Virus record (IMG/VR): IMGVR_UViG_2579778535_000001
Coordinates: 1-4,591 of that record
Length of the DNA stretch: 4,591 bases
Reading direction: 5' to 3' (one strand)
From: a virus
Taxonomy: Duplodnaviria > Heunggongvirae > Uroviricota > Caudoviricetes
A model generated the notes under the pieces. The model searched no databases. It had not been told where the DNA came from and saw only the letters and a program-made list of their open reading frames with translations. A program made the translations under genes and the position numbers. Positions 1-4,591 of the stretch are shown here, in pieces (within the stretch, counting starts at the first letter, position 1; every line of letters begins with the position of its first letter).

Positions 1-81
1 TCCAGTGATTAACACAGATGCTATAGCAATAGCCCCGCCACTTATCGCCGCTATTACGCTATTTCGTAGTGCCGGTGACAT
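1..81 (-). CDS. SAR-type endolysin, N-terminal fragment (gene continues beyond the left edge of the window)
   Basis: Minus-strand ATG at 81..79, in a different frame from the holin and overlapping its last 23 nt. Translation to the window edge is MSPALRNSVIAAISGGAIAIASVLITG, a Gly/Ala-rich signal-anchor-release style N-terminus like that of phage 21 R (recalled, not searched). Missed by the ORF track because it runs off the window. Confidence 0.7.
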   Translation of the reverse strand, partial: MSPALRNSVIAAISGGAIAIASVLITG

Positions 82-262
82 TGCCATTCAATCTGTCCTC
101 GCGCTCTTTGCGCTTGTAGTACCAGTTGATGCCAAATGTGCCGACAGTACAAAGAATACCAATGATGACAGCCCAGTCATTCAGGGAGAGAATGCCACCC
201 ATCGCAGTCAGTCCTCCGAAGCTGTAACTGAACCATTCTCTGATTTTGTCCATACGGTACAT
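59..262 (-). CDS. Phage holin, class II / pinholin-like (67 aa), with possible dual start Met1/Met4
   Basis: The 67-aa ORF starts MYRMDKI, has two Gly-rich hydrophobic segments (FSYSFGGLTAMGGILSL and AVIIGILCTVGTFGINWYY) and a highly charged C-terminal tail (KRKEREDR...). It lies downstream of Q, PR' and tR' in the same orientation and directly upstream of a SAR endolysin start. Purine-rich SD-like sequence (GAAGGGG) lies upstream of the ATG. Confidence 0.8.
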   Translation of the reverse strand: MYRMDKIREWFSYSFGGLTAMGGILSLNDWAVIIGILCTVGTFGINWYYKRKEREDRLNGNVTGTTK

Positions 263-268
263 GCTCTA

Positions 269-284
269 CCCCTTCATTGAGGGG
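269..284 (-). promoter_or_regulatory. Small hairpin overlapping the holin ribosome-binding region (sdi-like translational control element)
   Basis: Minus-strand RNA CCCCU-CAAUGA-AGGGG (5-bp stem, 6-nt loop) lies 7-22 nt upstream of the holin ATG and sequesters the SD-like purines. Position is analogous to the lambda S sdi structure. Confidence 0.4.
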
Positions 285-506
285 ATTTGCTCTATTTAAT
301 TAGGAATAAGGTCGATTACTGATAGAACAAATCCAGGCTACTGTGTTTAGTAATCAGATTTGTTCGTGACCGATATGCACGGGCAAAACGGCATGAGGTT
401 GTTAGCGCAACCTCTTGCCACCCGCTTTCACGAAGGTCATGTGTAGAAGGCCGCAGCGTAACTATCAACGATGAATTCATGATAGCCAGTGGCTACGGCT
501 CAGTTA

Positions 507-582
507 TGGTGCTGGTTAACGGACTTGAACCGCTACCCATTCGCTTACAAGGCGACTGCTCTACCATTGGAGCTAAACCAGC
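507..582 (-). tRNA. tRNA-Thr (anticodon UGU), 76 nt with encoded CCA
   Basis: Manual cloverleaf on the minus strand: acceptor GCTGGTT/AACCAGC (7 bp), D stem GCTC/GAGC, anticodon loop CTTGTAA (TGT), T stem AGCGG/CCGTT with T loop TTCAAGT, 3' terminal ACCA. Anticodon stem has one G-A mismatch at its top. Confidence 0.8.
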
Positions 583-587
583 ATATT

Positions 588-662
588 TGGCGGGACAGCG
601 TGGACTCGAACCACGATAAGAAGGTTAACAGCCTTCCGTAATTACCTTTATACGACTGACCC
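588..662 (-). tRNA. tRNA-Asn (anticodon GUU), 75 nt with encoded CCA; acceptor stem has a U4-U69 mismatch
   Basis: Manual cloverleaf on the minus strand: acceptor GGGTCAG/CTGTCCC (6 of 7 pairs), anticodon stem GAAGG/CCTTC, anticodon loop CTGTTAA (GTT), T stem CGTGG/CCACG with T loop TTCGAGT, discriminator G then CCA. Anticodon and T loops match E. coli tRNA-Asn as recalled. D stem is only 3 bp. Confidence 0.7.
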
Positions 663-666
663 AAAT

Positions 667-723
667 AAAAAATCCCGAAACCGTTGTGCAGGCTCTAACT
701 ATTACCTGCGAACTGTTTCGGGA
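667..723 (-). terminator. Rho-independent terminator (tR'-like) ending the short late leader transcript
   Basis: On the minus strand a 9-bp GC-containing stem (UCCCGAAAC paired with GUUUCGGGA, inner secondary pairing GCAGG/CCUGC) is followed directly by UUUUUUAUUU. It lies about 190 nt downstream of the predicted PR' start, matching the lambda 6S RNA length. Confidence 0.8.
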
Positions 724-859
724 TTGCATTTTGCAGACCTCTCAGCCTGCGATGGTTGGAGTTCCAGACGATACGTCGAAGTGACCAACTAGGCGGAATC
801 GGTAGTAAGCGCCGCCTCTTTTTATCTCACTACCACAACGAGCGAATTAACCCATCGTT
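667..859 (-). ncRNA. 6S-like late leader transcript (PR' to tR'), including the qut pause region
   Basis: Interval between the predicted PR' start (about 859) and the terminator is non-coding, about 193 nt, and contains the AACGAT -10-like pause element at 859..854. Boundaries inferred, not measured. Confidence 0.5.
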
Positions 860-865
860 GGGTCA

Positions 866-894
866 AATTTACCCAACTTTATTCAAAAAGTCAA
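866..894 (-). promoter_or_regulatory. Late promoter PR' with embedded Q-utilisation (qut) site
   Basis: Minus strand TTGACT (894..889), 17-nt spacer, TAAATT (871..866), located 43 nt downstream of the Q stop codon. Followed by the AACGAT pause-inducing element. Closely resembles lambda PR' as recalled. Confidence 0.7.
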
Positions 895-2104: not shown

Positions 2105-2629
2105 TTATCCTCTCCCATGATTATGGTGATACCCCAATCGTGATTCCGCCAATTTTCTGGCATTAACGGCTAGAGATATGTCATCGTATAATCCAAGAAA
2201 TATCTTTTTATTATCACTGTTTATATATGCTCCCCACTTTTTATTCTTCTTATAGTAGGCAACACCCATTACTCCAGAGCGATTATTAATAGGCTTTTTT
2301 CTGTTCCTTGAGTTCTGTTTATCATCTACAACGCGCAAATTGCATATTCTGTTATCGCTTTTAATTCCATTTATGTGGTCAATTTCCCCATCAGGTTCGC
2401 TTCCATAAAAAGATATCCATGCGATTCTATGAGCTCGACAAACTTTTTTATTTACAGATATACGAACGTATCCCTTTTCATCTATAGAACCAGCAATCTT
2501 ACCGGCATATGTTGAATTCCAGCACTCTCTTACACTTTCTCTTCTTTTGTATATAAACAAACCTGTTTCGCTATTATATTCATACAATTCATTGATTTCT
2601 TTTTGTGTTGGATATCTTTTACCGTTCAT
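2105..2629 (-). CDS. HNH homing-endonuclease-like protein with C-terminal AP2-type DNA-binding domain (174 aa)
   Basis: Contains GYVRISVNKK...RAHRIAW...EIDHINGIKSDNRICNLRVV...QNSRNRK (HNH_3-type motif) followed by GVMGVAYYKKNKKWGAYIN...IFLGLYDD (AP2-like). Gene is markedly AT-rich by eye compared with its neighbours. Stop TAA is immediately followed by the rusA ATG; start overlaps the ybcO stop (ATGA). Confidence 0.9.
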   Translation of the reverse strand: MNGKRYPTQKEINELYEYNSETGLFIYKRRESVRECWNSTYAGKIAGSIDEKGYVRISVNKKVCRAHRIAWISFYGSEPDGEIDHINGIKSDNRICNLRVVDDKQNSRNRKKPINNRSGVMGVAYYKKNKKWGAYINSDNKKIFLGLYDDISLAVNARKLAESRLGYHHNHGRG

Positions 2630-2916: not shown

Positions 2917-3121
2917 TTACCTTCCCTCGCAATTGAAGAATTGACTGAAGGTCTTTTTTAATAAATATGCGAGTGCGAATTGAGCAGTAGTTTTCCTTCA
3001 TTCTGGCGTAGTAATAGTCCTTTCTTTGCTTAAGTTTGTTGGCATCCGCTGTCATCCAGTCTTTTACAGCAAACTTAATTAGCCAGCGGTGGCAGAGATA
3101 CCATTTCAGGTAATCACTCAT
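2909..3121 (-). CDS. Hypothetical small basic protein (70 aa), AT-rich moron-like ORF of unknown function
   Basis: ORF with a strong SD (GAGGAAGAAG) upstream of its ATG. Start overlaps the ninF stop and its stop overlaps the ybcO start, so it is embedded in the translationally coupled operon. Trp/Lys/Tyr-rich; I recognise no family. Confidence 0.55.
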   Translation of the reverse strand: MSDYLKWYLCHRWLIKFAVKDWMTADANKLKQRKDYYYARMKENYCSIRTRIFIKKDLQSILQLRGKVNG

Positions 3122-3284
3122 CGTCTTCTTCCTCGTACATTGAGCTATTCGGATCGCTCATCAGTTCTGCGCAGCAATCGGAGCACACGTGAACTTCCAG
3201 CACATGCAGCTTCTGACCGCAGTTAGCGCACGTTAAAGCCCGCTCGACACTTTCTTGTTCGTAACTTCGATTTGGGTCAATCAC
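3114..3284 (-). CDS. ninF: NinF-like protein (56 aa) with CxxC...CC zinc-ribbon-like motif; probable GTG start
   Basis: C-terminal part of the 220-aa track ORF. Sequence [51 protein letters not shown] matches lambda NinF as recalled. GTG at 3284..3282 overlaps the ninE stop (GTGA) and has GAGGAAAA upstream. An in-frame ATG at 3308 is an alternative start but lacks an SD. Confidence 0.75.
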   Translation of the reverse strand: MIDPNRSYEQESVERALTCANCGQKLHVLEVHVCSDCCAELMSDPNSSMYEEEDDE

Positions 3285-3457
3285 CTTGTTTTCCTCATGC
3301 GGTTCCATTTGGCCTGTAACAGCCAGTAGACATAATCGAATGTCTTTACCTGGCTTTCTGTGGGGATTGGTTTCTTGCGGGATTTGGTGCGTTTGGTAGG
3401 AGTAAAAATCAGGTTGTCTAACGCTATTTGAGTAATACTTCGTCGCTGTCTCGCCAT
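3281..3457 (-). CDS. ninE: NinE-like protein (58 aa)
   Basis: Hand translation gives [58 protein letters not shown], resembling lambda NinE (MRRQRRSIT... basic C-terminus) as recalled. GGAGG SD 4 nt upstream of the ATG. Not in the ORF track because it is under 60 aa. Confidence 0.75.
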
Positions 3458-3479
3458 ACGTCCTCCGTTTCCTGCGGTA

Positions 3480-3701
3480 GTGGTAAAACTCCTGTTGGTG
3501 TTCTTTCACACCGGAGACACCATCGATTCCAGTAAGGCTGTCCTGGTCGAAAGCGATCGTCTTCCTTTCACCAGCGCGGAACGTCAGCGTCTGAAAGAGC
3601 TGGAACGTGAAAATCGTGAACTGCGCCGCAGTAACGATATCCTTCGCCAGGCTTCCGCTTATTTTGCGAAGGCGGAGTTCGACCGCCTCTGGAAAAAATG
3701 A
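3480..3701 (+). pseudogene. Remnant of IS3-family transposase orfA (5'-truncated); only the C-terminal leucine-zipper part is IS-derived
   Basis: C-terminal roughly 40 aa ([41 protein letters not shown]) match the C-terminus of IS629-like OrfA as recalled. The N-terminal roughly 30 aa have no HTH character and are encoded by phage-side sequence. Full-length orfA (about 108 aa) would have to start near 3375, inside ninE. Confidence 0.7.
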
Positions 3702-4591
3702 TGCCACTGCTGGATAAGCTGCGTGAGCAGTACGGGGTCGGACCGGTATGCAGCGAACTGCATATTGCCCCGTCAACGTATTACCATTGTCAGCAACAGC
3801 GACATCATCCGGATAAACGCAGTGCCCGTGCGCAGCACGACGACTGGCTGAAGAGAGAGATACAGCGCGTATACGATGAAAATCATCAGGTGTACGGTGT
3901 GCGTAAAGTCTGGCGTCAGTTGTTACGGGAAGGAATCAGGGTGGCCAGATGTACAGTGGCACGTCTCATGGCGGTTATGGGACTTGCCGGTGTTCTCCGG
4001 GGTAAAAAGGTCCGTACGACCATCAGCCGGAAAGCCGTTGCCGCAGGCGACCGCGTAAACCGTCAGTTCGTGGCAGAACGACCTGACCAGCTGTGGGTGG
4101 CTGATTTTACTTACGTCAGCACATGGCAGGGCTTCGTCTATGTGGCGTTTATCATTGATGTGTTTGCCGGATACATCGTGGGGTGGCGGGTCTCATCGTC
4201 TATGGAAACGACATTCGTGCTGGATGCGCTGGAGCAGGCGTTGTGGGCCCGTCGTCCGTCTGGCACCATCCATCACAGCGATAAAGGCTCTCAGTATGTG
4301 TCACTGGCCTATACGGAGCGACTAAAAGAAGCCGGATTACTGGCATCAACAGGGAGTACAGGCGACTCGTATGACAACGCGATGGCTGAGAGCATCAATG
4401 GTCTTTACAAAGCGGAGGTAATACACCGTAAGAGCTGGAAAAACCGTGCAGAAGTGGAACTGGCCACACTAACGTGGGTGGACTGGTATAACAATCGACG
4501 ATTGCTGGGAAGGCTGGGCCATACTCCTCCGGCAGAAGCAGAAAAAGCTTATTATGCTTCCATCGGAAACGATGATCTGGCAGCCTGAGTT
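3570..4591 (+). mobile_element. IS3-family insertion sequence (IS629-like), left end deleted; right end beyond the window
   Basis: orfA remnant plus intact orfB. No left inverted repeat or orfA 5' region is present. IS-like sequence begins about 3570-3580, directly next to phage ninE-upstream sequence. Window ends 3 nt after the orfB stop, so the right inverted repeat is not visible. Confidence 0.85.
3698..4588 (+). CDS. IS3-family transposase OrfB (DDE integrase-fold catalytic subunit, 296 aa), IS629/IS1203-like
   Basis: 296 aa with the DDE triad context WVADFTYV (D), HHSDKGSQY (D), [18 protein letters not shown] (E). ATG overlaps the orfA stop in the -1 frame, the standard IS3 arrangement. 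Strongly resembles IS629 OrfB as recalled. Confidence 0.95.

Follow-up and report, generated by a model that had tools for sequence, protein, structure and literature searches.

A known tRNA-Asn and tRNA-Thr cassette in the late leader of a lambdoid prophage, and its probable role in counter-defence

The DNA analyzed here, called the window throughout, is a 4591-nt fragment of a lambdoid prophage (IMG/VR record IMGVR_UViG_2579778535_000001) whose prophage genes lie on the minus strand. Right behind the late terminator tR' it carries a tRNA-Asn(GUU) gene and a tRNA-Thr(UGU) gene (507-662, minus strand), and it is this pair that we set out to explain. The best overall explanation, to which we assign a probability of roughly 0.6, is that the pair forms a late-leader cassette of elongator tRNAs with counter-defence as its main payoff: the Thr tRNA would be a nuclease-resistant stand-in for host tRNA-Thr(UGU), which is destroyed by P2-Old and PARIS AriB, and a modest gain in ACA decoding would be a likely side benefit. 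By itself, the feature is a known tRNA cassette in one more prophage, and finding it is routine annotation. Its wider interest comes from recent work and not from the window: temperate phages have few natural answers to the classic P2-lambda interference, and the identical Thr tRNA is among them. This Thr tRNA is always accompanied by Asn(GUU), which is an Old and AriB substrate as well. Two small points emerged from the analysis, namely that HK446 carries the pair, rather than a single tRNA, in its late leader, and that the Asn partner matches the secondary target of the same nucleases; we regard these as leads and not as discoveries.

Two tRNA genes in a widespread cassette

An earlier reading of the window, made from its sequence only, had proposed an Asn-GUU and a Thr-UGU gene at this place. 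ARAGORN calls exactly these two, both on the minus strand, and their order is indeed Asn then Thr when the window is read on that strand. The Rfam tRNA model (RF00005, gathering score 29 bits) scores tRNA-Thr at 61.5 bits (E = 5e-12) and tRNA-Asn at 55.3 bits (E = 2.4e-10), values that place the calls far beyond chance. The 3' CCA is encoded in both genes, and both have A37. Among the core nucleotides that we checked (U8, A14, G18G19, U33, the T-loop GTTCRANYC and the 3' CCA), tRNA-Asn has every one and tRNA-Thr all but A14, which is replaced by C14 in the D-loop CAAUGGUA; the D arm of this tRNA-Thr is also found in other phage tRNAs. In E. coli, the identity elements are G1-C72, C2-G71, G35 and U36 for the threonyl-tRNA synthetase, and G34, U35, U36 and G73 for the asparaginyl-tRNA synthetase. 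All of them are present in the respective window tRNAs: tRNA-Thr has G1-C72 and C2-G71 next to A73, and tRNA-Asn has the discriminator G73. Two further peculiarities are the anticodon stem of tRNA-Thr (GUCGC/GCGAA), which has 4 bp, a G27.A43 mismatch and no CNG at 28-30 or 40-42, and the conserved U4.U69 and U13.U22 mismatches of tRNA-Asn.

The cloverleaf of both tRNAs appears to be under purifying selection, as judged from covariation among copies. For tRNA-Thr, 7 pairs are changed on both sides and 95% of the cells are paired, against 20-47% in controls with slid partners; for tRNA-Asn, 3 pairs are changed on both sides and 89% of the cells are paired (slid-partner controls for both tRNAs together: 20-54%). 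These counts reflect few independent events, as the copies fall into two main clades, an E. coli/Salmonella type and a Klebsiella type, and it is between these that the compensatory changes are seen: U3-A70 to C-G and U6-A67 to C-G in tRNA-Thr, and A6-U67/G7-C66 as well as A28-U42 to C-G in tRNA-Asn. The G27.A43 mismatch of tRNA-Thr is itself kept in 10/10 lambdoid variants. One could suppose that the genes are decaying hitch-hikers, i.e., non-functional relics spread by mosaic recombination, and the oddities C14 in Thr and U4.U69 and U13.U22 in Asn, together with the degenerate or chimeric second tRNAs of ST64T/L and of six IMG/VR loci, would fit such an account. The high sequence conservation with compensatory pair changes, Rfam scores about twice the gathering threshold, and an identical Thr tRNA that works in vivo all speak against it, which leaves it hardly credible for the pair and close to refuted for the Thr gene. 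We therefore regard 507-662 as probably comprising two functional elongator tRNA genes.

The ARAGORN calls and an alignment to lambda agree with the earlier proposal that the pair lies in the late leader after tR', co-oriented with Q, pR' and the holin gene (Table 1). The start of the Asn gene had been put 5 nt after the tR' U-tract; the placement holds, and the spacing is 4 nt past the U6 run, a trivial difference. From 940 to 664 (minus strand) the window is ~98% identical to lambda, a stretch that includes the end of Q, pR', the 6S leader and tR' and that runs up to TTTTTTAT. Window 664..506 (~160 nt) then cleanly stands in for an unrelated 162-nt stretch of lambda (44783-44944), and lambda homology is back at AACTGAGCCGTAGCCACTG (window 505) and continues to the first lysis gene. 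We considered that the 162-nt lambda segment might be a decayed tRNA pair and rejected this, as ARAGORN calls nothing there and Rfam gives no tRNA-like match at E values up to 10.

The implied novelty of the arrangement did not survive comparison with other phages. The Asn-Thr late-leader cassette is already known, both as annotation and, for its Thr member, as a counter-defence tRNA, and it has been annotated and discussed for years in phage 21, Sf6, SfI and phage L. A 221-nt query across the pair matched 61 phage records and 401/5426 complete E. coli genomes (7%). At the matching position, tRNA-Asn and tRNA-Thr are annotated in Sf6, phage 21, SfI, BTP1, Kapi1, mEp506, SPN9CC and others, and by PGAP in chromosomes; identity of the window cassette to the annotated phage copies is 98-100%. 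The window tRNA-Thr is 76/76 identical to that of phage 21, Sf6 and HK446, and tRNA-Asn is 74/75 identical to that of the same three phages, differing at one D-loop base (window 643), a variant that also occurs in the IMG/VR loci L057 and L014. The Sf6 record places the tRNAs after tR' with the remark 'similar to phage 21', in the curated phage 21 record tRNA-Asn begins one base past the terminator feature, and the phage L paper discusses the same location of the cassette. In other words, the window shares with phage 21, Sf6, HK446, SfI, BTP1, Kapi1 and mEp506 the order of the genes, the 5-nt spacer (which in HK446, Sf6 and phage 21 reads AAUAU or AACAU), the abutment on the tR' T-tract and the site 5' of the lysis genes. 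The type of terminator varies: the lambda-type tR' is common to the window, HK446, Kapi1, mEp506 and phiv205-1, whereas in phage 21 and Sf6 both the leader and the terminator are of Q21 type. An IS629-like element in the nin region further sets the window prophage apart from the named cassette phages.

Searching IMG/VR with the D arm of tRNA-Thr, we found 61 Asn-Thr tandems in addition to Klebsiella-type clusters. In all E. coli/Salmonella-type copies from IMG/VR (70-odd), the cassette adjoins the T-tract TTTTTT(T)ATTT of tR', which is mostly 21-type and otherwise lambda-type as in the window. The cassette is found with unrelated morphogenesis modules, namely P22-like, HK97-like, 21-like and those of the SfI myovirus. 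Judged by these comparisons of sequence, it is best described as a mobile module of ~160 nt with fixed junctions, common to phages with unrelated virion genes.

Probable counter-defence by the Thr tRNA and its Asn partner

P2-Old, a Toprim tRNase, is the effector in P2-lambda interference. It is lethal through cleavage of host tRNA-Thr(UGU), and its cut follows the C of CNG motifs that are paired within the anticodon stem; phage Thr(UGU) tRNAs can rescue through altered CNG motifs and a shorter stem, and the tRNA-Thr of phage 21 (tRNA-Thr21) was resistant to cleavage and gave cells protection (Govande et al. 2025, PMC12445682). The host tRNA comes from a single gene and is the sole reader of ACA, and a related phage tRNA-Thr needs its UGU anticodon to protect. 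In addition, HK97, HK542 and Bas34 regain the ability to plate on Old+ cells when the HK446 tRNA-Thr(UGU) is supplied (Derzhaev et al. 2026 preprint). The window tRNA-Thr is identical in sequence to both tRNA-Thr21 and the HK446 tRNA, including C28U/G42A, which removes the CNG, and the G27.A43 mismatch. It thus has the published features of Old resistance, i.e., the UGU anticodon, altered paired CNG motifs (28-30/40-42) and a shortened stem: the host stem is ACUGA/UCAGU, with CUG/CAG and 5 bp, and the window stem has UCG/CGA at the same place and the G27.A43 mismatch. The tRNA-Thr21 and HK446 experiments used plasmid expression, whereas the window tRNA sits in a native late leader beside an Asn tRNA. 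The sequence-only reading had suggested that phage tRNAs can replace host tRNAs cut by nucleases and had singled out Asn-GUU; the replacement is borne out by experiment chiefly for Thr, through the identical phage 21/HK446 tRNA acting against P2-Old, and not for Asn.

The same preprint describes a 'single' Thr(UGU) tRNA in HK446 and suggests that it compensates for the integration site (Derzhaev et al. 2026 preprint). We found with ARAGORN that HK446 (L132) has Asn(GUU) and Thr(UGU) together in its late leader, at 35097-35252; both tRNAs are unannotated in the GenBank record. The HK446 attP is of thrW type (CGU anticodon) and lies at 20896-20958. Finding the pair in the late leader, 14 kb from attP, argues against integration-site compensation. 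We rejected this explanation, and tRNA-dependent lysogeny with it, on these grounds and because Kapi1 integrates in argW, which is left intact.

For the Asn partner, the relevant nucleases are the same two. PARIS AriB acts on Lys(UUU) and Thr(UGU), with Asn(GUU) as a secondary target, and its determinants on tRNA-Lys are U39, A41 and U16 (Belukhina et al., PMC12409363), and tRNA-Asn(GUU) was among the tRNAs compared for the kinetics of P2-Old cleavage, in which tRNA-ThrU was cut fastest (PMC12445682). Asn(GUU) thus comes second for AriB and is cut more slowly by P2-Old. At positions 39, 41 and 16, both window tRNAs depart from their host counterparts (Thr: UAAGCG against host UAAUCA, with A16; Asn: UAACCU against host UAAUCC, with A16), and the Asn anticodon stem has AAG/CUU in place of the host CGG/CCG. 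On the strength of its anticodon identity and these anticodon-stem changes, the Asn tRNA probably plays the same role, that of a resistant stand-in for the secondary target tRNA-Asn(GUU).

Extending this to the pair as a whole, we tentatively consider that Asn and Thr are a co-selected two-tRNA counter-defence module against Toprim tRNases (P2 Old, PARIS-like AriB), in which the Asn tRNA is cleavage-resistant as well; this extension is possible, and we would not call it probable. If it were true, the fixed place right behind tR' would matter. In support of it we count that the same pair of anticodons occurs in P1 (an Asn-Thr tandem) and in N4 (Asn-Ser-Thr-Pro). The Asn genes of the cassette are 59-64% identical to those of P1 and N4, which are 91% identical to each other; as the P1/N4 Asn genes are thus of another lineage while the Thr genes are related, the Asn+Thr pairing seems to have been assembled more than once. 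The P1 tandem lies in the C1-controlled ban operon and resembles the window pair in its two anticodons, their order, a very short spacer and a Thr gene 83% identical to that of the window. It is expressed only once the prophage repressor is lost. It differs in its Asn gene (59% identity to the window), in its operon and control, and in having a third tRNA, Ile (CAU anticodon), nearby. The large arrays of T5 and T4 offer a second parallel: they include Thr(UGU), and in T5 also Asn(GUU), as variants with substitutions around 39-41, as in the window set, and they counter AriB and P2-Old by replacing cleaved host tRNAs and not by inhibiting the nuclease. Unlike the window prophage, T5 and T4 are virulent phages whose large arrays (T5: 23-25 genes) have their own early promoters and include Lys(UUU). 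The window cassette genes are 62-66% identical to the T5 genes.

A number of points weigh against counter-defence as the main payoff. All protection results come from plasmid expression in trans, the plasmid-borne viral Thr tRNA neither rescued lambda nor eased the toxicity of Old to recB cells, and HK446 evades Old chiefly via the protein Oad2 (Derzhaev et al. 2026 preprint). Avoidance of CNG is not universal, given that in P1 the Thr tRNA retains CUG/CAG and a stem of 5 bp and that in the Klebsiella-type Asn copy a paired CNG has been regained (CAG/CUG). The differences at 16, 39 and 41 are weak evidence, since the window tRNAs are only 63-72% identical to their host counterparts and such differences are expected anyway. 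The best AriB target, tRNA-Lys(UUU), has no gene in the window or in HK446 according to ARAGORN; considering that the T5 tRNA-Lys was needed in every reported PARIS rescue, the cassette should not defeat B185 PARIS by itself. There is also a problem of timing: if the nuclease acts early, Q, N and O must be translated before a Q-gated tRNA can help, and in HK446 these genes contain 4, 3 and 9 ACA codons, respectively. Furthermore, the phage L paper left undecided whether these tRNAs are released by cleavage of the late mRNA or made from their own promoter. Finally, with ACA at about twice its E. coli frequency in HK446, a codon-supply role keeps some weight.

Codon supply, expression and comparison with other phages

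Codon supplementation is the classical explanation for phage tRNAs, and as the main function of the cassette it would mean more decoder for ACA and more tRNA-Asn, with no nuclease needed. Per thousand codons, ACA numbers 13.8 in HK446, 17.3 in SfI and 7.1 in the host (the latter two values from the SfI paper), the host relies on one gene for its sole ACA reader, and in the major capsid gene of phage L 24/25 Asn codons are AAC (phage L paper). The distribution of codons within HK446 fits this account less well: ACA makes up 17.7 per thousand in early and lysogeny genes (36% of Thr codons) and 11.3 in late genes (17%), only 2/26 Thr codons in the major head protein and 4/27 in the major tail protein are ACA, and Asn codon choice is host-like. 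Besides, in the SfI paper the role of tRNA-Asn was described as unclear, overexpression of the host tRNA-Thr(UGU) does not protect in the way that the phage version does, and the occurrence of the cassette with unrelated morphogenesis modules indicates that it is not bound to one codon-usage background. The earlier suggestion that the tRNAs supplement codon usage is thus weakly supported by the HK446 frequency of ACA and fits poorly with the excess being in early and not late genes and with the unbiased Asn codons. Supply of codons to the late genes is possible, if poorly matched to the position of the cassette, and we consider codon supplementation as the main function rather unlikely.

How the tRNAs would be made bears on the counter-defence reading as well. 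In a consensus scan, pR' was the sole promoter-like site upstream on the tRNA strand, a scan that weak or non-sigma-70 promoters could escape, and none was found between tR' and the tRNAs. The pair is therefore most likely part of the pR' late transcript. From this anatomy and from lambda biology, the most likely route is that Q-modified polymerase from pR' ignores tR' and transcribes the pair, and that RNase P and 3' trimming to the encoded CCA free both tRNAs. The lambda pR' is constitutive, some leakage through tR' is possible, and polymerase modified by N and coming from pR should read through tR' as well; both routes would probably add a lower-level supply. Synthesis exclusively with Q, as first proposed, agrees with the anatomy, and the 'only' is probably too strict.

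RNA data from lysogens of related phages are of two kinds. The paper on the BTP1 lysogen transcriptome mentions the two tRNA genes separately where it lists the genes that exceed 100 transcripts per million. In Kapi1, which has the same lambda-type tR' and cassette as the window, lysogen RNA-seq gave a clear signal antisense to both tRNAs, and a similar signal is stated for BTP1; on the plus strand of the window, the promoter scan found one promoter-like site, a weak one at 165-193. Could the cassette serve the lysogen instead, with constitutive pR' and a leaky tR' maintaining a standing tRNA pool against tRNA-cleaving toxins (colicins, contact-dependent inhibition toxins, self-activation of Old or PARIS), so that it would be a moron? 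Besides the constitutive promoter, the presence of the cassette in 7% of complete E. coli genomes is in its favor, and the BTP1 listing hints at a signal in lysogenic cultures. BTP1 is highly spontaneously induced, so that this signal may stem from induced cells, and tight abutment to a strong terminator argues for gating and not for constant supply. We therefore consider a benefit to the lysogen very unlikely.

It may also be asked whether the tRNA folds are mainly RNA-processing sites, at which RNase P and RNase E cuts would detach the leader and set the stability of the lysis transcript, with decoding incidental. The tRNAs do lie between the leader and the first late gene, and a cut at the Asn 5' end would free a 6S-like RNA. 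Lambda and many relatives do without the cassette at the same site, however; the anticodons, synthetase identity elements and CCA are conserved, all of which a processing signal could do without; and the related phage tRNA already mentioned needs its UGU anticodon to protect. We see only a slim chance for this explanation.

The parallel that had been drawn with Shiga toxin (Stx) phages is apt for position. In 933W, ileZ-argN-argO lie between Q, pR' and the terminators on one side and the first late genes on the other, in the orientation of the late operon, as the pair does in the window. The parallel ends there: the 933W tRNAs lie 160-390 nt past the annotated terminators and have their own putative promoter, pT, they are unrelated to the window pair and have Ile/Arg rare-codon anticodons, and they are followed by a terminator and then stx2AB. 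The window pair lacks what marks a moron of the Stx type, as its tRNAs are others, there is no promoter-like site after tR', and no toxin is present. We know of no nuclease-evasion role shown for ileZ-argN-argO. That no toxin cargo follows in the window was correctly stated: downstream of the pair we found no toxin or other cargo gene in the window, and the lambda-like S leader (505-263) is followed by the holin gene.

Features of the window and variants of the cassette

The features around the tRNA pair are collected in Table 1. From the lambda alignment, the pR' start is expected near 859. The function of the 6S-like leader would be that of its lambda counterpart. The tR' hairpin has a predicted energy of -28.1 kcal/mol (z = -4.2; 0/200 shuffles as stable), and a single loop base separates it from the lambda tR' in the alignment.

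Table 1. Features of the late-leader region of the window and the evidence for each
Feature	Position	Strand	Evidence
Q, lambda-type late antiterminator, 207 aa	937..1560	-	Open reading frame; Pfam Antiterm PF03589, E = 6e-58
pR'	866..894	-	Promoter scan (-35 TTGACT 894..889, 17-nt spacer, -10 TAAATT 871..866); lambda pR' alignment
Late leader, equivalent of the lambda 6S RNA, with the qut region and with tR' at its end	667..859	-	~98% identity to lambda 44587-44781
tR' intrinsic terminator	663..725	-	Hairpin 725..671, U6 672..667, AUUU 666..663
tRNA-Asn(GUU), 75 nt	588..662	-	ARAGORN; Rfam 55.3 bits
Spacer AAUAU, 5 nt, between tRNA-Asn and tRNA-Thr	583..587	-	Sequence
tRNA-Thr(UGU), 76 nt	507..582	-	ARAGORN; Rfam 61.5 bits
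Lysis-gene leader	263..506	-	Homologous to the lambda region 5' of S, from AACTGAGCCGTAGCCACTG (window 505)
Holin, class II, HP1/P21-like, first late protein-coding gene	59..262	-	Pfam Phage_holin_2_3, E = 4e-21

Two sets of open reading frames (ORFs) in this region were treated as spurious: a 54-aa ORF at 316..480, which has no Pfam match and lies over lambda non-coding DNA, and plus-strand ORFs of 46-50 aa across the tRNAs, which have no family match and overlie the tRNA genes. Upstream of Q, the window contains nin-region genes for NinE, a YbcO/DUF1364 protein, an HNH_3 endonuclease, RusA and NinH. The HNH_3 gene (2105-2629, minus strand) lies between YbcO/DUF1364 and RusA, is AT-rich and is missing from close relatives, e.g., NZ_AP042519, a mosaic relative that has neither the tRNA pair nor the HNH gene; it has the look of a homing endonuclease inserted into the nin region. 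NZ_AP042519 was the best hit in a megablast of all 4591 nt against complete E. coli genomes, in which no record matched 80% or more of the window. Window 3480-4591 (plus strand) is a 5'-truncated, IS629/IS1203-like element of the IS3 family that adjoins NinE (3457..3281) and comprises the C-terminal portion of OrfA, an ALIL frameshift pseudoknot at 3656-3772 (Rfam) and OrfB at 3698-4588. The early region of the prophage upstream is probably disrupted, so that the window copy may be defective. A 220-aa ORF (3776..3114) that crosses the junction between the element and NinE is likely spurious.

Several variants of the cassette were observed in passing. Klebsiella-type clusters have the order Asn-Phe-Thr-Arg(UCU), sometimes followed by Gly(UCC) (L009; in IMG/VR, e.g., L023 and L096). 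The 70 nt upstream of their tRNA-Asn contain no T-tract terminator; they contain a long, conserved, hairpin-like sequence, GGGCTCTTGGG...CAAGAGCCC, followed by TGAACCAGATTGA, and these cassettes thus sit in a different kind of late leader. Six IMG/VR contigs (L112, L129, L051, L109, L121 and L021) have a chimeric second tRNA about 75-240 nt past the Asn start, of which the 5' half is that of the phage Thr tRNA and the 3' part is like host thrU with G42U/U43C. The chimera has lost its 3' CNG, has an anticodon stem of 3 bp and is not called by ARAGORN. In all six contigs it is followed by a glyT-like tRNA-Gly(UCC), and the chimera looks like the product of recombination with the host thrU-tyrU-glyT-thrT operon; Old depletes tRNA-Gly(UCC), among other tRNAs (Derzhaev et al. 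2026 preprint). The second gene of ST64T (L008, about 481-552) and of phage L has diverged from the Thr gene, to which it is homologous and whose acceptor-stem 5' half it shares, and it goes uncalled by ARAGORN. In the phage L paper, the second tRNA is given the anticodon UAA (Leu), and the gene could represent either an anticodon switch or a decaying gene. Lastly, the IMG/VR locus L084 has, in the 70 nt 5' of its tRNA-Asn, a lambda-type tR' hairpin whose interior is the exact reverse complement of that in the window and lambda, a flip that leaves the terminator hairpin intact and looks palindrome-mediated.

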